Virus record (IMG/VR): IMGVR_UViG_2778261543_000003
Span: 1-15,756 of that record
DNA from: a virus
Lineage: Duplodnaviria > Heunggongvirae > Uroviricota > Caudoviricetes
Length of the DNA: 15,756 bases
Direction: 5' to 3' (one strand)
The notes beneath the pieces were generated by a model. It was not told the origin of the DNA. It saw only the letters and a program-made list of their open reading frames with translations, and made no database searches. Within the stretch, counting starts at the first letter, position 1. The number at the start of each line of letters is the position of its first letter. A program made the position numbers and the translations under genes. Below, in pieces: positions 4,737-15,330 of the stretch.

Positions 4737-5036
4737 TCAAATAAGTGGTTTGCTGCCTAATTTCATTTTCTGGCGACCAACACAAGTCACACCCATTTCA
4801 CTGCGTGGCTTGCGGTAGTAAATACGATTCTGTTTACTCTCGACTTCTTCTGCCTTCTTGCAGCGAAGGCTTCCGAGTGATGCTGCTTTGTCTGCTCTGA
4901 CGCAACCAGAGAGCTTTAGCGCATTTTTTCGCGCCAGTCGCTGCTCTTGCATTGCCTGTTCACGTTGAGCCTGTCTGCGTGCTCTGCGGCGATTTCTGGC
5001 GTTATCGTCAGCCAGATATGTAATGACTACTGTCAT
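4737..5036 (-). CDS. N: Antitermination protein N
   Basis: Arg-rich N-terminal motif (DDNARNRRRARRQAQREQ) and C-terminus YYRKPRSEMGVTCVGRQKMKLGSKPLI closely matching the lambda N C-terminus as I recall it; GGAGG 7 nt upstream of the ATG at 5036; nutL lies upstream. Confidence 0.75.
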   Translation of the reverse strand: MTVVITYLADDNARNRRRARRQAQREQAMQEQRLARKNALKLSGCVRADKAASLGSLRCKKAEEVESKQNRIYYRKPRSEMGVTCVGRQKMKLGSKPLI

Positions 5037-5076
5037 GTTGACCTCCGGGAAGGTACACATCCTTGTGTGTCGATGA

Positions 5077-5196
5077 TTATTTGTTTTTGCGTTCCCACAT
5101 CCAGTCATCTACTTCAGACCAGATAGTGAAACCGAAGCAGATGGCGAATGTGGTAACTAAACCACCGAGAATTGGGTTGGTCATGATGTCTAACAT
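5077..5196 (-). CDS. Small predicted membrane peptide (39 aa, MLDIMTNPILGGLVTTFAICFGFTIWSEVDDWMWERKNK) in the N leader
   Basis: Not in the ORF track. GAGGAA 6 nt upstream of ATG; one hydrophobic helix plus a charged Trp-rich tail; lies between the leader inverted repeat and N. Confidence 0.35.
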   Translation of the reverse strand: MLDIMTNPILGGLVTTFAICFGFTIWSEVDDWMWERKNK

Positions 5197-5367
5197 TTTC
5201 TGTTCCTCAGATGATTAGCTTTGGTGGTGTGGTAGGTGGGAGACCCATTTCGACCCGCTTCGTCCGACTTCAATTCGGCAATAGTCCCGCAGGCCTCGCC
5301 GCTTTACGTGCGACATATTCCCGTCCATGAACCCTTCACCACACCCCAAAGCCAACTACTCTTTGGT

Positions 5368-5408
5368 TCCCGCATTTCGGCGGGACAATCCCATCAATGT
5401 TAAAGAGC
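5368..5408 (-). promoter_or_regulatory. nutL (boxA GCTCTTTAA plus boxB hairpin)
   Basis: Minus-strand GGCTCTTTAACA ... TCCCGC-cgaaau-GCGGGA; the same arrangement occurs on the plus strand at 7082-7125; boxA matches the lambda CGCTCTTA consensus. Confidence 0.6.
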
Positions 5409-5454
5409 CTGCCAATCTGTTCCGTTTGGCTACCAGCGTCCTGCTGATGGCTTA

Positions 5455-5496
5455 AAGATAACTTAGGTTATAGGTGTGGTCAATAACCTAATTTAT
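5455..5496 (-). promoter_or_regulatory. pL promoter with operators OL1/OL2
   Basis: Minus-strand TTGACC (5483-5478), 17-nt spacer, TATCTT (5460-5455); operator ATAACTTAGGTTAT at 5458-5471 overlaps the -10 and ATAACCTAATTTAT at 5483-5496 overlaps the -35. Confidence 0.55.
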
Positions 5497-5660
5497 ATTT
5501 TGTGGTAAATAAGTTATAAGTGATGGATAACAAAGGTATTTTATTTTTGTAAATGTTGCTGATTGATTGGTGTTTGAGGGCTTGCGTGCGGGGTGAAGGT
5601 GTTACCTTTGGCTTGATGCTTGTCTATGATGATGATGGGTGATTGGGTGGTGAACGGCAG

Positions 5661-5695
5661 GAAAAGAAAACCCGGCGCTGAGGCCGGGTGTTTTT
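5661..5695 (-). terminator. Intrinsic terminator ending the cI operon (potentially bidirectional)
   Basis: CCCGGC-gctgag-GCCGGG stem-loop flanked by a T-run on the plus strand and an A-run (U-run on the minus strand); starts right after the stop of the 5694-5990 gene. Confidence 0.7.
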
Positions 5696-5990
5696 AGTCT
5701 TTTCTTTTGCTTAGCATTTCGTCGATTTCTAAGTCAATACGATATTGATCTATTGCTTTTCTCTCGTTTGGGGTTGGTATTTTATATTGTTCAATTAGAT
5801 CTGTTGTGTATTTTATTTCATCTAATGTGATTTTTATATCAGAGAGAATCTCTTTTATATCAATTAGATGCTCTTCTTCTTTTGCGCGATTAGAGCTATG
5901 TTCAATCATTTGAGATAGCTTTTTACTAATGCTTAGCAAAACAAAAAGAATGATGATCAAAACAACAACAAAAACTATCAGAAATTCCAT
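5694..5990 (-). CDS. AT-rich single-pass membrane protein with coiled-coil-like C-terminal region, cotranscribed with cI
   Basis: GGAGGGATA-ATG RBS 40 nt downstream of the cI stop; hydrophobic N-terminus EFLIVFVVVLIIILFVLLSI, then a charged, periodic Ile/Leu segment; followed by a terminator. Confidence 0.7.
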   Translation of the reverse strand: MEFLIVFVVVLIIILFVLLSISKKLSQMIEHSSNRAKEEEHLIDIKEILSDIKITLDEIKYTTDLIEQYKIPTPNERKAIDQYRIDLEIDEMLSKRKD

Positions 5991-6030
5991 TATCCCTCCG
6001 CACTTCCGTAAGTCTTCTTCTGATTATCGG

Positions 6031-6738
6031 TTACCAACTATGAGACGACCAGAATACTCTGCCAATAATCCTTACGGTTTCATGAAATTCATCTCTATCC
6101 ATTACTTCATCCGGGTACTCTTCGCGATTTATTGATCTGATTATCACCGATGTAGGGGTGGCGATTAATGTTTTTACTCGTAACAAATCAGACTGGCAAA
6201 TAGCGTAGGTTTTACCATCTCTGATTGTGGTATCTTGCGTGTTAACACCAACAACATCGCCATCGTGAAGCGTTGGTTCCATGCTTTGCCCTACAACCCT
6301 AACTAGCTTGGCTGATCTTTCAGATACTCCCATCTTTTTCAGATAGTGCTTTCTGAAAACCAAAGAGAACTCCGATGATTCCTCTAGCTCGCAGCTACCG
6401 CTTCCAGCTGAAAGCGAAACGTTAAGAAGAGGCAACGCAACAAACTCGTCATCGTTTCTTTTAATGTCTTCCCATACCACAGCTTTTAAAGATGACTCAC
6501 GGACATTGGATGGTTCTTCATGTGCACCATCCCTCATTTCACCAATACCAGAACTAAGCCATTCAGGGCGCACTTTTAAAGCATTGGCTAATTCAACCAT
6601 CTTGCGAGATCCGTTTGTTTTACCGGACGACATCTTCTGTATGGCTGGCTGAGATATTCCAACCATGTCAGCAAGCTGTGATTGTGATACCCCTGCCGAG
6701 CTCATGGCTGCATTTAGTCTTTCTGCGAATGTTTTCAT
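6031..6738 (-). CDS. cI: cI-type repressor (HTH plus S24 LexA-like peptidase domain)
   Basis: HTH SQSQLADMVGISQPAIQKM; S24 signature GQSMEPTLHDGDVVGV and a downstream Lys (LRVKTL). Start taken at MKTF (6738) because the longer track start at 6768 would overlap an operator. Confidence 0.85.
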   Translation of the reverse strand: MKTFAERLNAAMSSAGVSQSQLADMVGISQPAIQKMSSGKTNGSRKMVELANALKVRPEWLSSGIGEMRDGAHEEPSNVRESSLKAVVWEDIKRNDDEFVALPLLNVSLSAGSGSCELEESSEFSLVFRKHYLKKMGVSERSAKLVRVVGQSMEPTLHDGDVVGVNTQDTTIRDGKTYAICQSDLLRVKTLIATPTSVIIRSINREEYPDEVMDRDEFHETVRIIGRVFWSSHSW

Positions 6739-6750
6739 ACCCACAAATCT

Positions 6751-6816
6751 ATAACTACGGTTATCCAAAGTAAAATAACAAAGGTTATTGCTATTTTTTA
6801 TAACTTGAGTTATCTT
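6751..6816 (+). promoter_or_regulatory. OR operator triplet with pR (and divergent pRM) region
   Basis: ATAACTACGGTTAT (6751-6764), ATAACAAAGGTTAT (6775-6788) and ATAACTTGAGTTAT (6800-6813) at 24-25 bp spacing; candidate pR -35 TTGCTA (6788-6793) and -10 TATCTT (6811-6816). Confidence 0.6.
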
Positions 6817-6849
6817 TGGTTATAAGTAATGACCACAAGAGGTATGCTC

Positions 6850-7074
6850 ATGAATTTAGTAATTCAACGAGCCTTGAAAATTGTCGGTAGCCAAAAGCGC
6901 CTTGCCGACAAGTGTGGTGTAACGCAGCCAGCAGTACACAAATGGCTGAAAGGCGGGTTGGTCTCTCCAGAGAAAGTTACCGCCATCGTTAACGCCACTG
7001 GAGGGCAGATCAAGGCTTACGAAATTCGCCCCGATTTGCCACACCTGTTTCCAAAACCGAATCAGGCAGCATAA
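6850..7074 (+). CDS. cro: Cro-like HTH regulator (YdaS-like)
   Basis: First rightward gene after OR; AAGAGG 7 nt upstream of the ATG at 6850; HTH SQKRLADKCGVTQPAVHKWLK; C-terminal YEIRPDLPHLFP. Confidence 0.65.
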   Translation: MNLVIQRALKIVGSQKRLADKCGVTQPAVHKWLKGGLVSPEKVTAIVNATGGQIKAYEIRPDLPHLFPKPNQAA

Positions 7075-7183: not shown

Positions 7184-7462
7184 ATGCAACTTACAAGTAC
7201 TCGCAAGAAAGCGAATGCAATTACAAGCAACATCCTGAATCGAATTGCTGTACGTGGTCAGCGAAAGGTTGCCGACGCGTTAGGGATTAATGAATCGCAA
7301 ATTTCGCGATGGAAAGACAGCTTCATCCCAAAAATGGGAATGCTTCTGGCTGTTCTTGAATGGGGTGTTGAAGACGAGGAGTTGGCGGAACTGGCTAAGA
7401 AAGTAGCCAGAATGCTGACAAAAGAAAAAGCCCCGAAGAACGGCGAATTCTTCGAGGCCTGA
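7184..7462 (+). CDS. cII: Transcriptional activator cII
   Basis: Strong resemblance to lambda cII as I recall it (ILNRIA, SQISRWK, IPKMGMLLAVLEWGV). Confidence 0.85.
   Translation: MQLTSTRKKANAITSNILNRIAVRGQRKVADALGINESQISRWKDSFIPKMGMLLAVLEWGVEDEELAELAKKVARMLTKEKAPKNGEFFEA
7418..7454 (-). terminator. Minus-strand intrinsic terminator inside the cII 3' end (candidate OOP-like antisense RNA terminator)
   Basis: 7-bp stem CGAAGAA/TTCTTCG (7434-7440 with 7448-7454) followed on the minus strand by GGGCUUUUUCUUUU. Confidence 0.45.
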
Positions 7463-7496: not shown

Positions 7497-7658
7497 ATGA
7501 CAAAACGTCGTAAGAAATACCAGGAAAAAGAAGAGATTCGACACCCTGATTCACCTGAGGGATTAGTGGTAGCCGCAGCAAATAACAGGGCGTTCGCAGA
7601 GCGCCTTGTTGGTGTTTACAGACTAGCCAAAGCAGGAGTGAAACATGGGCGTCGTTAA
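7497..7658 (+). CDS. Small basic hypothetical protein (53 aa, MTKRRKKYQEKEEIRHPDSPEG...)
   Basis: AGGAG 5 nt upstream of ATG; its 3' end overlaps the O start by 14 nt; not in the ORF track. Confidence 0.35.
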   Translation: MTKRRKKYQEKEEIRHPDSPEGLVVAAANNRAFAERLVGVYRLAKAGVKHGRR

Positions 7659-8466
7659 GTTAGCTGATTACAGGCCTCAACTGGAGGTCGTGGAGCATCG
7701 CGTGGCAGATACCGAAGATGGTTTCATGCGCGTTGCTAACGAGATTACCGACAGTCTGCTGATGGCTGATTTAACCGTCCGGCAGTTGAAGGTGATGCTC
7801 GCTATCATGCGCAAGACATACGGATTCAATAAGCCGATGGATCGACTCACAAACACGCAGATAGCAGCCATGACAGGTATTCATCACACTCATGTTTGCG
7901 CTGCCAAGCGCCAGCTTATTGAGCGTAAATTCCTCATTGCTGATGGCGTGAAAATCGGAGTGAACAAGGTGGTTTCTCAGTGGATTAGCCAGGACAGCTT
8001 AACATTAGCTAAAACAGCTAATAAAACATTAGCCAAGTCGGCTAATGGGTATAAGCCAAGTCAGCTAAACACAAAAGACAATATACAAAAGACAATAAAT
8101 ACAAATACCCCCTTACCCCCTAACGGGGGCGGCGATGGGCAGGTTAAACCTGAACGTCGCAAGGCAGAACGAATCGACTACGAATCCTTCCTGAACGCCT
8201 ACAACACCGAAGTCGGTGACAGACTTCCGCATGCTGTTGCGGTCAACGAGAAACGCAAACGCCGCCTGAAGAAAATCATCCCGCAACTGAAAACGCCAAA
8301 CGTGGACGGTTTCAGAGCGTATGTCAGGGCGTTTGTGCATCAGGCCAAGCCGTTTTACTTCGGAGACAACGACACGGGCTGGACGGCCGATTTTGATTAC
8401 CTGCTGAGGGAAGATTCGTTAACGGGAGTACGGGAAGGGAAGTTTGCAGACAGGGGGATTGCATGA
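7645..8466 (+). CDS. O: Replication initiation protein O
   Basis: N-terminal domain resembles lambda O ([28 protein letters not shown]); AGGAG RBS; iteron-like repeats inside the linker; ATGA overlap with the downstream helicase. Confidence 0.8.
7990..8105 (+). repeat. Candidate replication origin: iteron-like repeats plus AT-rich tract inside O
   Basis: AGCCAAGTCGGCTAA (8031-8045) and AGCCAAGTCAGCTAA (8054-8068), further AGCTAA motifs at about 10-bp phasing, then an A-rich tract with ACAAAAGACAATA repeated. Confidence 0.45.
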
Positions 8467-9839
8467 GACAGGATATCGAAGCGAGCGTTATCGGTGGCCT
8501 GCTGATTGGTGGATTAACACCAACCGCCAGCGACGTTCTGGCAACGCTGGAGCCGGAAGCGTTTTCAATTCCGCTCTACCGGAAAGCCTTCGAGGTTATC
8601 CGCAAGCAGGCGAGAAACAGAAACCTAATCGACGCGCTGATGGTTGCAGAGGCGTGCGGAGAGGAGCATTTCACGTCAATCCTGATGACCAGCAAGAACT
8701 GCCCGAGTGCCGCAAACCTGAAGGGATATGCTGGAATGGTCGCGGATAACTATCACCGCCGTCTGGTGCTGGAAATCATGGACGAAATGCGTGAACCAAT
8801 TCAGAGCGGAACCATCGACGCATCGAGTCAGGCGATGGACGAGCTGGTAAAGCGTCTTTCAGCCATCAGAAAGCCACGTGACGAGGTAAAACCTGTACGG
8901 TTAGGGGAAATCATCACCGACTACACTGACACGCTTGACAGGCGTCTGAGGAACGGAGAAGAGTCAGATACCCTGAAGACCGGAATCGAAGAACTTGACG
9001 CTATCACCGGAGGGATGAACGCTGAAGACCTGGTGATTATCGCCGCTCGTCCTGGTATGGGGAAAACCGAACTGGCGCTAAAGATTGCCGAAGGTGTTGC
9101 AAGCCGCGTTATTCCTGGTTCTGACGTCCGGCGCGGAGTATTGATTTTCTCGATGGAAATGAGCGCATTGCAGATTGCAGAGCGAAGCATTGCCAACGCC
9201 GGGAGGATGTCGGTTAGCGTACTGCGAAATCCTGCATCGATGGATGACGAGGGCTGGGCACGTGTTGCTAACGGCATGAGTCAGCTTGCAGATTTGGATG
9301 TATGGGTAGTCGATGCCTCGCGGTTATCGGTCGAAGAAATACGCTCAATCGCAGAACGGCACAAACAGGAAAATCCAAACCTGTCACTCATCATGGCGGA
9401 TTATCTTGGCCTGATTGAGAAGCCGAAAGCAGATCGCAACGACCTTGCAATTGCTCACATCTCCGGAAGCCTGAAGGCGATGGCGAAAGACCTGAAAACG
9501 CCTGTTATCTCCCTGAGTCAGCTTTCGCGCGATGTTGAGAAGCGACCAAACAAACGCCCGACAAACGCAGATTTGCGTGATTCAGGAAGCATTGAGCAGG
9601 ACGCAGACTCAATCATCATGCTCTATCGGGAAGCGGTATATGACGAGAACAGTAGCGCCGCGCCATTTGCTGAAATCATTGTGACAAAAAACCGTTTTGG
9701 CTCACTTGGTACGGTTTACCAGCGGTTCTGCAACGGACACTTTGTTGCATGTGACCAGGATGAAGCCAGACAGATTTGCACAGCATCAAATGCACCTGCT
9801 GCGCGTGGCAGACGATATGCACAAGGGGCTGACGTATGA
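8463..9839 (+). CDS. DnaB-family replicative DNA helicase
   Basis: DnaB-like N-terminal domain followed by a RecA-type ATPase core with Walker [10 protein letters not shown]; sits directly after O. Confidence 0.9.
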
Positions 9840-12575: not shown

Positions 12576-12650
12576 GGGTCAGTCGTATAAAGGTCATTAC
12601 GGAAGGCTGTTAACCTTCTTATCGTGGTTCGAGTCAACGCTGTCCCGCCA
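12576..12650 (+). tRNA. tRNA-Asn-like (anticodon GUU), possibly degenerate
   Basis: Cloverleaf foldable by hand: anticodon arm GAAGG-CTGTTAA-CCTTC, T-loop TTCGAGT, 3' CCA; but one acceptor mismatch, one T-stem mismatch and an odd D-arm. Confidence 0.4.
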
Positions 12651-12655
12651 AATAT

Positions 12656-12731
12656 GCTGGTTTAGCTCCAATGGTAGAGCAGTCGCCTTGTAAGCGAATG
12701 GGTAGCGGTTCAAGTCCGTTAACCAGCACCA
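12656..12731 (+). tRNA. tRNA-Thr (anticodon UGU)
   Basis: 76 nt; perfect 7-bp acceptor stem GCTGGTT/AACCAGC, D-stem GCTC/GAGC with GG in loop, anticodon loop CTTGTAA, T-loop TTCAAGT, 3' ACCA. Confidence 0.75.
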
Positions 12732-15111: not shown

Positions 15112-15330
15112 CGGCAGTACCGCGAAACAACCCAAGCCAGTAAGTGGGGAAATAACACTGGCAGCCACTGAAAGATGAACCTCCAGCCTTATGGCAAAAA
15201 AGATTCTTTGTGGTGGCGGACTGATGGAAAGACATCGGATAGAATAAAACAGTGGCTAGGGTAGCTCCCGAAAAGCGGAATCGTCACCGCCAGCCACTGA
15301 ATCTATGACGAACAACTAGACGAGGTTGAT

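Follow-up and report, generated by a model that had tools for sequence, protein, structure and literature searches.

ATAAC-N4-GTTAT dyads as probable cI operators of a lambda-style switch in an Escherichia coli lambdoid prophage

The dyad ATAAC-N4-GTTAT, repeated on both sides of the repressor gene of an Escherichia coli lambdoid prophage, very likely constitutes the operators of a lysis/lysogeny switch built like that of lambda, and, as judged from the sequence, the palindromes are very probably the cI binding sites that keep the prophage silent. The window, i.e. the whole 15,756-base stretch of DNA analysed here, contains a canonical lambdoid immunity region in the order N-like gene, pL/OL, cargo ORF with a terminator, cI, OR, cro, cII, O and DnaB-like helicase. 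It has a divergent HTH+S24 repressor/cro pair around three dyads, and a second operator cluster with a degenerate third site at the leftward promoter upstream of the N-like ORF. This is an ordinary lambdoid OL/OR system, a variant of the textbook switch that leaves the established picture of lambdoid regulation unaltered. The features of the region are as follows.

4737-5108: N-like ORF, weak match to Pfam N_peptide (E 0.0036)
5455-5483, minus strand: candidate pL, −35 TTGACC (5483-5478), 17 bp, −10 TATCTT (5460-5455)
5458-5471: OL1, ATAACTTAGGTTAT, exact dyad, overlaps the pL −10, exact in all listed relatives
5483-5496: OL2, ATAACCTAATTTAT, one mismatch (G10 to T), abuts the pL −35
5504-5517: candidate OL3, GGTAAATAAGTTAT, 21 bp from OL2, GTTAT half only (5513-5517)
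5527-5540: alternative or extra weak OL site, ATAACAAAGGTATT, two mismatches, ATAAC half kept in most relatives
5670-5689: bidirectional intrinsic terminator, ends the cI-orf98 transcription unit
5694-5990, minus strand: orf98, small ORF with a hydrophobic N-terminus, downstream of cI
6031-6738, minus strand: cI repressor, 235 aa, Pfam Peptidase_S24 (1.4e-17) and HTH_3 (7.8e-07)
6746-6774, minus strand: candidate pRM, −35 TTTACT (6774-6769), 17 bp, −10 TAGATT (6751-6746)
6751-6764: OR3, ATAACTACGGTTAT, exact dyad, overlaps the pRM −10
6775-6788: OR2, ATAACAAAGGTTAT, exact dyad, bordered on opposite sides by the −35 elements of pRM and pR
6788-6816, plus strand: candidate pR, −35 TTGCTA (6788-6793), 17 bp, −10 TATCTT (6811-6816)
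6800-6813: OR1, ATAACTTGAGTTAT, exact dyad, overlaps the pR −10
6851-7074, plus strand: cro, 74 aa, Pfam YdaS_toxin (1.1e-17) and P22_Cro (1.1e-05)

By searching the window for the exact dyad ATAACNNNNGTTAT, four copies were found (5458-5471, 6751-6764, 6775-6788 and 6800-6813), while dinucleotide-preserving shuffles gave a mean of 0.01 and reached four or more in 0 of 200 trials. Allowing up to one mismatch raised the count to 6, against 0.41 expected, the additional matches being 5483-5496 and 9495; the latter lies within the DnaB-like gene. All the sites share a 5-N4-5 geometry, 14 bp in which the outer bases are conserved and the centre varies, and they form two clusters, OR in the cI-cro interval and OL upstream of the N-like gene, with centre-to-centre spacings of 24 and 25 bp at OR and 25 bp between OL1 and OL2. 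The exact sites are confined to OL and OR, the motif does not occur at similar density throughout the window, and the intergenic regions of the window contain no further repeated dyad. For comparison, about 7 sites per 5 Mb would be expected by chance. Since these intergenic regions are A+T-rich, palindromes arising there by chance and without any operator role had to be considered; this reading is effectively refuted by the shuffles, by a count over 478 kb of DNA from related prophages, where 244 of 245 exact sites fall in OR or OL clusters (described below), and by retention of the sites across genera while the spacers drift.

The first-pass annotation had listed three palindromes at OR (6751, 6775 and 6800), all of which are exact matches, and at least two at OL (5458 and 5483), of which the first is exact and the second carries one mismatch. 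OL2 looks like a conserved weaker site because in relatives, too, OL2 repeatedly has a right half that departs from the consensus, mostly TTTAT. The degenerate third OL site that it also mentioned is real, but its position is ambiguous between two stretches: 5504-5517, which retains a GTTAT half and is the positional homologue of a one-mismatch OL3 (ATCACATAAGTTAT) in HK639-type relatives, and 5527-5540, which has two mismatches and corresponds in alignment to OL3 of mEpX2, a heteroimmune phage. The interval from OL to the terminator (5541-5695) gave 0 Rfam matches and 0 promoter-scan calls. As for orf98, no Pfam family scored above its cut-off; the ORF occupies the position of the rex genes of lambda and is variable cargo, and the OL-OR distance among relatives ranges from 887 to 3126 bp.

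Regarding the promoters, the hexamers TATCTT, TTGCTA and TTGACC stand where they had been reported, 17 bp apart within each pair, and the described overlaps hold at both pR and pL: the promoter-proximal operators OR1 and OL1 overlap a −10 by 3 bp each, and the next operators, OR2 and OL2, overlap a −35 by 1 bp each. pL matched the sigma-70 consensus at 9 of 12 positions and was listed by the promoter scan, whereas pR was absent from the list because it scored 8 of 12, just under the threshold; pRM was likewise unlisted because it scored only 8 of 12. The pRM −10 lies 7 nt from the cI ATG, so that the predicted transcript from pRM would have little or no leader, and the AGTAAA block (plus strand) that forms the pRM −35 ranks with the most strongly conserved columns outside the operators in relatives. 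At the pR −35 position the relatives have TGGACA, TTGCTC or TAGACT, followed by 17 bp and then by TATCTT, TATTTT, TATCCT or TATGAT, in which the form TATnnT is always kept; TATnnT follows both OR1 and OL1 family-wide.

An alternative, which we consider unlikely, is that the dyads are operators but the true pR lies further downstream with its −35 in OR1, so that OR1 would block the −35 instead of the −10, with OR2 outside the promoter on its upstream side. In GenBank, the putative pR of HK639 is annotated in this way (TTGGGT-17-AGTAAT, −35 inside OR1 and −10 downstream of it), the window also has TTGAGT (6805-6810), AGTAAT (6825-6830) and TATAAG (6821-6826), and the pR of the first-pass annotation, as noted, is an 8-of-12 match. 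However, this placement fails in the window because TTGAGT and AGTAAT are separated by 14 bp, too close for sigma-70. In addition, the TATnnT after OR1 and the −35-like hexamer at the OR2 edge keep a fixed 17-bp spacing family-wide and mirror pL, and the HK639 annotators placed their putative pL, the equivalent TTGCCA-17-TATCTT, exactly as the first-pass annotation did. pR at 6788-6816 is thus our preferred assignment.

In order to relate the dyads to the repressor, a set of loci was retrieved by means of the repressor C-terminal domain alone, blind to operators. All 73 loci with the recognition helix xSQPAIQKM had three sites upstream of cI, and none of the 12 loci with other helices had any (73/73 and 0/12, respectively); the 478 kb of prophage DNA mentioned above was likewise retrieved blind to the operators. 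Among the loci that share the C-domain, those with cI SQAAIQKI and Cro TQQAVYKW carried the dyad ACAAC/GTTGT, those with cI AQSSVNKL and Cro (A/S)QSTICDW carried ATCGC/GCGAT, and those with cI QPSVWKL and Cro KQPSVWAW carried ATAGC/GCTAT. These dyads occur at the same three OR positions in classes B and D and as two exact sites 25-27 bp apart in class C, and all the other-helix classes have a second dyad cluster beyond cI. In the reverse direction, a search from the motif returned three-site contigs flanked by a cI helix (S/T)QPA(I/V)QK and a Cro helix (S/T)QPAVHKW, along with distant pairs, e.g. cI SQPAYQAL/Cro KQPAVSGW; these loci were chosen for two exact sites, so that only the third site and the OL sites count as independent evidence. 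Repressors from Kluyvera and Enterobacter, which are 47% and 41% identical overall and have the same N-domain, are likewise preceded by the three sites, located at −74, −49 and −25 relative to the cI start. Operator class thus follows the cI N-domain at constant C-domain and persists when the C-domain is replaced.

This two-way covariation of repressor helix with half-site supports the earlier claim that the palindromes are the repressor recognition sequence. A reading in which the dyads are bound by Cro alone or by another factor, cI recognizing different sequences, can be framed since both proteins are encoded beside the sites, but it is very improbable: the operator class tracks the cI N-domain whether the C-domain is constant or replaced, the cI and Cro helices have the same first residues within every class, and the window offers no other repeated intergenic dyad for cI to bind. 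We also weighed a recognized unit that is longer than, or out of register with, the 14-bp core, such as a 16-18-bp site with T/A flanks or half-sites paired across neighbouring dyads. T often precedes ATAAC, GTTAT is often followed by A or C, and lone conserved half-sites occur at 5513-5517, 5527-5531 and 6819-6823. On the other hand, the flanking positions are asymmetric and unconserved between OR1, OR2 and OR3, information content falls sharply beyond the 5-bp half-sites, the 5-N4-5 geometry is common to all four classes, and the homologous 434 repressor is established to act on 14-bp sites; such a longer or shifted unit is therefore improbable, though less so than Cro alone.

The rule linking helix to operator is imperfect because a Trabulsiella locus (L007) with the helix VSQAAIQKL, where ACAAC sites were expected, had none; its Cro helix is VTQGAVWKW, and this locus may represent another specificity.

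When unique OR sequences were aligned, half-site columns reached 1.93-1.96 bits, compared with 1.2-1.3 for the central four bases and 1.05-1.35 for the spacers. Sites were kept in Stx1a_10051, SH2026Stx1 and PA28 while the intervening DNA diverged, PA28 DNA being only 78.6% identical. This cI family was found in 163 of 5,426 complete E. coli genomes (approximately 113 of the window type and 50 of the PA28 type), and also in Stx1-converting phages of O157:H7 and other STEC. On the other hand, HK639-type immunity gave 1 partial match among the same 5,426 genomes; its home is mainly in Enterobacterales other than E. coli, and many Enterobacterales prophages with differing cI C-domains have the same half-sites and spacing. 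The first-pass annotation had taken the dyads to define the immunity group of this prophage. A specificity class is indeed supported, and its traits are all present here (cI xSQPAIQKM, Cro xQPAVHKW and three sites roughly at −74, −49 and −25 relative to the cI start), but the motif marks this class and not one prophage because it is common to HK639, PA28, SH2026Stx1 and the Enterobacterales prophages.

We then compared the system with known ones. In the PDB, cI is matched best by the N-domain of the 434 repressor (1per/2or1, E 2.9e-07, residues 6-67, phmmer), and 434 is a more informative comparison than lambda because of its 14-bp operators and because it is the nearest solved homologue. The operators of phage 434 are 14-bp sites of the form ACAA-N6-TTGT, and its repressor helix is TQQSIEQL. 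The recognition helix here is S29-Q-P-A-I-Q-K-M36, in which Gln30 and Pro31 align with 434 Gln28 and Gln29, respectively, the first helix Gln being conserved. The two systems resemble each other in having 14-bp dyads with contacted outer 4-5 bp and an uncontacted centre, three OR sites, and cI and Cro on the same sites (a prediction in the present case), and the half-site of the sister class SQAAIQKI/TQQAVYKW, ACAAC/GTTGT, is almost that of 434. They differ in that the half-site here is ATAAC and not ACAA, position 2 being T in place of C and position 5 an invariant C, and in that Cro belongs to the YdaS/P22_Cro family (helix T-Q-P-A-V-H-K-W; best PDB match Xfaso 1 Cro, 3bd1) and is not an orthologue of 434 Cro. 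Dyad geometry and N-domain homology both agree with the 434-type operator/repressor class; membership of imm434 is ruled out by the half-site ATAAC and the helix SQPAIQKM. The cro gene has a Shine-Dalgarno AAGAGG at 6838-6843 and a start codon kept in relatives.

With lambda the prophage shares divergent cI/cro, a tripartite OR (24 and 25 bp), an OL mirrored at pL upstream of N, an OR2 that abuts the pRM −35, a pRM −10 (TAGATT) near the cI ATG that implies a leaderless mRNA, and the self-cleavage motifs Ala-Gly, Ser and Lys, identified by sequence as Ala111-Gly112, Ser152 (in GQSMEP) and Lys189. It differs in its 434-like cI N-domain without the lambda-type N-terminal arm, in its vestigial OL3, and in its operators, which, as had been proposed, are unlike the 17-bp ones of lambda: they measure 14 bp and their half-sites are unrelated to the TATCACCGC type. 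Lambda immunity is ruled out on these grounds.

Among the closest known systems are also HK639 and the Stx1 phages PA28 and SH2026Stx1, and the specificity is neither that of lambda, 434 nor 933W. The cI N-domain of HK639 is 85.5% identical with an identical helix ISQPAIQKM, and HK639 has the same three OR sites and spacing, OL sites, and the annotated putative pL architecture. The difference lies in the C-terminal domain (a near-identical HK639-type cI, L009, is only 41% identical overall to the window cI), in put-RNA antitermination instead of N, and in a good one-mismatch OL3 where that of the window is degenerate. The cI of PA28 is 84.8% and that of SH2026Stx1 95-99% identical, both with the same sites; operators are unannotated in the records of HK639, PA28 and SH2026Stx1. 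The cro of PA28 is annotated as 'Cro of BP-933W'.

933W is likewise a lambdoid Stx phage, and its two OL sites recall the degenerate OL3 here; its operators, however, are 15 bp long with a central base pair (PMC3317979), as opposed to 14 bp with N4, and its cI is absent from the close matches, which rules out 933W immunity. HK620/mEpX2-type operators, AATAC-N5-GTATT, likewise span 15 bp around a central base pair, and their half-sites are different; the mEpX2 OL scaffold is approximately 85% identical to window 5334-5548, whereas its cI and Cro are lambda-like. Since their 15-bp sites have other half-sites, phages of the 933W and HK620/mEpX2 types are expected to be heteroimmune with the prophage. 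Identity with the O104:H4 phage BAA2326 was excluded, its footprinted sites being weakly symmetric and unrelated. Assignment of the high-GC motif-bearing contigs to Pseudomonas phage D3 was dropped, as tblastn with their repressor gave no close phage record (best match 49% identical, a Burkholderia phage).

A full-text search for six exact site strings returned only an unrelated primer. Openly searchable literature on 933W/operator, HK639 and Stx1/operator sites did not describe these operators, a survey of Stx-phage CI clades gives no operator definitions, and no binding, footprinting or transcription-start study of this repressor/operator type was found in the searchable literature.

We infer binding, affinity order, cooperativity, pRM activation, transcription starts and SOS induction, and propose the following mechanism. 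cI dimers would place one 434-like helix-turn-helix (SQPAIQKM) on each ATAAC half-site. At OR1 and OR2, cI would cover the pR −10 and the edge of the −35, turning off cro, cII, O and P. At OR2 it would sit directly against the −35 of the weak, leaderless-type pRM, which is where the repressors of lambda and 434 stand when they stimulate their own production. OR3, lying over the pRM −10, would stop cI production once repressor is abundant, whereas OL1 and OL2 would cover pL as a mirror image to turn off N, the third OL site being vestigial. Cro (TQPAVHKW) would read the same half-sites, and RecA-stimulated self-cleavage at Ala111-Gly112 by a Ser152/Lys189 dyad would release repression.

On one repressor scaffold at least four operator specificities appear, pairing QPA with ATAAC, QAA (cI)/QQA (Cro) with ACAAC, QSS (cI)/QST (Cro) with ATCGC, and QPSVW with ATAGC, always as 5-N4-5 and in three of the four classes at the same three OR positions. 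That they reflect a true recognition code in the first residues of the cI/Cro helix is possible, and we put it forward tentatively. If so, a single cI Pro31 to Ala substitution would move the preference at operator position 2 from T to C, and prophages with the same helix but unrelated C-domains (HK639-type and window type) would be cross-immune across genera. For 434-type DNA recognition, these natural helix/operator swaps form a compact series of test cases.

Knowing the operator sequence makes homoimmune prophages predictable and allows reporter fusions and footprinting probes to be designed. The vestigial OL3 provides a means to ask whether switch stability changes, an effect of the type proposed for 933W (PMC3317979, PMC5977221). 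Toxin release by the Stx1 phages depends on prophage induction, which is governed by the repressor and its operators.

Positions 5300–7000 were read directly and the whole window was searched for ATAACNNNNGTTAT, with shuffled sequences as control. The exact motif occurred at 5458, 6751, 6775 and 6800, i.e. four times in the whole window (shuffle mean, 0.01), and four exact matches were obtained in none of 200 shuffles. Up to one mismatch gave six matches against 0.41 expected, the additions being 5483 (ATAACCTAATTTAT) and an isolated coding-region site at 9495; two mismatches further added 5527 (ATAACAAAGGTATT) and 6810 (TTATCTTTGGTTAT). The search and shuffles confirmed the ATAAC-N4-GTTAT dyads described in the first-pass annotation at OL (OL1 and OL2, 5458 and 5483) and OR (OR3, OR2 and OR1, 6751, 6775 and 6800), every site coordinate being right. 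The site at 9495–9508 (AAAACGCCTGTTAT) lies within the DnaB-like helicase gene and is probably due to chance or coding conservation; the annotated helicase gene of SH2026Stx1 has a comparable one-mismatch site, AAAACACCGGTTAT (L001 5980). An additional GTTAT half-site was observed at 6819–6823, directly past the pR −10, where the cro transcript is predicted to begin, forming with the preceding bases the two-mismatch pseudo-site at 6810–6823, offset by 10 bp from OR1. This GTTAT is kept in window-type and PA28-type phages and missing in HK639-type phages.

ORFs and Pfam matches gave a canonical lambdoid early region, in the order N-like ORF, OL dyads, cargo ORF, cI, OR dyads, cro, cII, O and helicase.

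Genes and terminator of the early region
4737–5108, minus strand, N-like ORF (weak N_peptide match)
5670–5689, bidirectional terminator preceding the 98-aa ORF
5694–5990, minus strand, 98-aa cargo ORF with hydrophobic N-terminus
6031–6738, minus strand, cI (Peptidase_S24, 1.4e-17; HTH_3, 7.8e-07)
6851–7074, cro (YdaS_toxin and P22_Cro families)
7184–7462, cII (Phage_CII, 1.8e-42)
7645–8466, O
8463–9839, DnaB-like helicase

The cI protein has Ala111-Gly112, Ser152 and Lys189, which, judged by sequence, would constitute the self-cleavage apparatus of LexA and lambda cI. The 98-aa ORF, which matched no Pfam family above its cut-off, lies between cI and the bidirectional terminator, the place held by the rex genes in lambda; the cargo here varies widely among relatives, with OL-OR distances of 887 to 3126 bp. 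On the minus strand, a nutL-like element (~5366–5409) carries the boxA-like GCTCTTTAAC, aligning with the annotated boxA of mEpX2, and then a short GC stem-loop (CCCGC...GCGGG), a possible boxB. Two tRNA genes (12576–12647 and 12656–12728) are located 3' of the Q-like region and 5' of the lysis genes, as in the Stx phage layout, and no stx genes were present in the tRNA/lysis interval of the window. Near the window end, 15249–15311 gave an Rfam match to int-alpA sRNA.

Three candidate promoters were read around the dyads.

Candidate promoters
5483–5478 (TTGACC), 17 bp, 5460–5455 (TATCTT), minus strand, pL (promoter scan, 9/12)
6788–6793 (TTGCTA), 17 bp, 6811–6816 (TATCTT), plus strand, pR (8/12)
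6774–6769 (TTTACT), 17 bp, 6751–6746 (TAGATT), minus strand, pRM, 7 nt from the cI ATG (6738)

Since its score falls under the scan threshold, the pR candidate was not called by the scan. The overlap of promoters and operators that had been proposed was borne out: the overlap with the −10 is 3 bp for both OR1 and OL1, as TAT of GTTAT is the first half of the hexamer, and that with the −35 is 1 bp for both OR2 and OL2. The pL and pR candidates are true mirror images. In the whole family OR1 is followed by TATnnT (TATCTT, TATTTT, TATCCT or TATGAT), with a −35-like hexamer at the OR2 edge (TTGCTA, TGGACA, TTGCTC or TAGACT) and a constant 17-bp spacing; the AGTAAA block, the pRM −35 on the opposite strand, is strongly conserved too. 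OR3 overlaps the candidate pRM −10, and OR2 abuts its −35, placing the OR2 centre ~42–43 bp upstream of the predicted pRM start, a geometry matching that from which the lambda and 434 repressors activate pRM. This promoter would give a leaderless or nearly leaderless cI mRNA, as lambda pRM does.

At OL, OL1 is exact in the whole family and the right half of OL2 is mostly off-consensus (usually TTTAT, sometimes ATTAT or CTTAT), so OL2 looks like a deliberately weaker site. The family's third OL site lies 21 bp beyond OL2; it is the one-mismatch site ATCACATAAGTTAT in HK639-type phages, and its window homologue, 5504–5517, retains GTTAT alone. An isolated ATAAC at 5527–5531 is conserved in most relatives, followed in the window by GTATT to give the two-mismatch site, and aligns with OL3 of heteroimmune mEpX2, whose OL scaffold is ~85% identical to that of the window but whose operators are AATAC-N5-GTATT. 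The window OL may be functionally bipartite; a bipartite OL was reported for 933W (PMC3317979). The ~85% identity covers nutL-pL-OL (window 5334–5548; mEpX2, L209 2501–2715) and extends to the heteroimmune HK620-type phages mEpX2, HK140 and HF4s, whose operators are AATAC-N5-GTATT and whose cI and Cro are lambda-like; operators were apparently exchanged or mutated inside a common scaffold. The GTATT on the right side of 5527–5540 resembles the HK620-type half-site.

Conservation was concentrated in the half-sites, whose columns carried 1.93 bits (17 operator-blind) or 1.96 bits (49 in total) over unique OR sequences, compared to 1.2–1.3 bits for the central four bases and 1.05–1.35 bits for the spacers. 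Across 478 kb of related prophage DNA, 244 of 245 exact sites were in clusters. From base composition, a 5 Mb genome is expected to contain ~7 sites by chance, so the signal is clustering, not presence alone.

The relation of repressor to operator was evaluated in loci retrieved, with operators ignored, by cI protein alone (genome collection) or C-terminal domain alone (viral contigs), and then scored for their N-terminal helix and a 130-bp stretch upstream of cI. Three sites (≤1 mismatch) were found in 73/73 operator-blind loci with helix (I/L/V)SQPAIQKM, and ATAAC-N4-GTTAT sites in 0/12 with other helices. Kluyvera (L008) and Enterobacter (L009) repressors, with 47% and 41% overall identity, share the N-domain but differ in C-domains, and both had the window's arrangement of three exact sites (−74, −49 and −25 relative to the cI ATG). 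Where the same C-domain came with another helix, other 14-bp dyads lay upstream: classes B and D had them at the three window positions, class C had two exact sites 25–27 bp apart, and all three classes had a second dyad cluster beyond cI.

Helix and operator classes
Class A (window): cI SQPAIQKM; Cro (S/T)QPAVHKW; ATAAC-N4-GTTAT
Class B: cI SQAAIQKI; Cro (T/S)QQAVYKW; ACAAC-N4-GTTGT
Class C: cI AQSS(V/I)N(K/R)L; Cro (A/S)QSTICDW; ATCGC-N4-GCGAT
Class D: cI (A/S)QPSVWKL; Cro KQPSVWAW; ATAGC-N4-GCTAT

The first helix residues are common to cI and Cro in each class. One contig of the same C-domain family, from Trabulsiella guamensis (L007; cI VSQAAIQKL, Cro VTQGAVWKW), had no ACAAC, ATAAC or other class dyads upstream and breaks the pairing of helix with operator.

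In the reverse direction, viral contigs were scanned for pairs of adjacent exact sites, yielding 119 loci in which, owing to this selection, only the third OR site and the OL sites are independent evidence. Loci with three tandem sites were flanked by QPA-helix cI and QPAVHKW Cro (the cro partner being uncalled in a few), including distant pairs of cI SQPAYQAL with Cro KQPAVSGW (L107, L127). Some two-site loci adjoined other XRE/S24 repressors with SQP or SQV helices in high-GC or low-GC phages. In high-GC (0.59–0.66) phage contigs (L027, L036, L057, L060, L080, L110, L111, L116 and others), ATAAC-N4-GTTAT dyads, which often read ATAACC-NN-GGTTAT, were grouped in twos and threes beside S24 repressors whose helices include ISQVSIAKI and VSQPAIKKI, showing that the half-site is reused well outside Enterobacterales. 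By a tblastn search with their repressor, these contigs correspond neither to phage D3 nor to another closely related phage on record.

Among proteins of solved structure, the best homologue for the cI N-domain was 434 repressor (E 2.9e-07), and the alignment GISQPAIQKM/GTTQQSIEQL places Gln30 with 434 Gln28 and Pro31 with 434 Gln29. Operators of 434 are 14 bp, ACAA-N6-TTGT, and thus have the geometry of the window dyads; the half-sites differ at position 2, and the cI residue homologous to the 434 reader of that position is changed in the window. In class B, with Ala or Gln at that residue, the half-site is back to ACAAC. The stated difference from lambda held, with 17-bp sites there against 14 bp here, and the operators of 933W (15 bp) and the BAA2326 sites are also unlike those of the window. 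The HK639 and window cI N-domains share 85.5% identity, and their helices and sites are identical; the HK639 GenBank record annotates cI, cro and a putative pL of matching architecture, places the putative pR differently and leaves operators unannotated. Neither a paper describing ATAAC-N4-GTTAT operators nor a biochemical characterisation of this half-site was found in the searchable literature, which covers few subscription-journal papers. The sequence comparisons support standard lambdoid OL/OR operators of the 434 geometric type; repressor binding, affinity order, cooperativity, transcription starts and SOS induction are inferred.

The region was 99.3% identical to that of the Stx1a-converting phage Stx1a_10051, and its cI-OR-cro part shared 94.5% identity with SH2026Stx1, and 78.6% with PA28 as well as with a group of O157 Stx1a phages; in all of these the dyads were kept and the DNA between them altered (PA28: OR3 ATAACCACGGTTAT, OR2 ACAACAATTGTTAT, OR1 ATAACTCATGTTAT, OL1 ATAACCTAAGTTAT, OL2 ATAACTATATTTAT). 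Among 5,426 complete E. coli genomes, 98 had the full region and 163 the wider cI family (50 PA28-type and ~113 window-type). Two copies were present in 3 of the 163 carriers, where the repressors of the co-resident prophages are predicted to read the same operators, making cross-repression possible. That the operators set repressor recognition is supported by helix-operator covariation, and they may mark an immunity group; the specificity is common to many prophages across Enterobacterales, Stx1 phages among them, and hence not unique to this prophage. The most useful by-product is the series of natural variants in which helix and operator covary.
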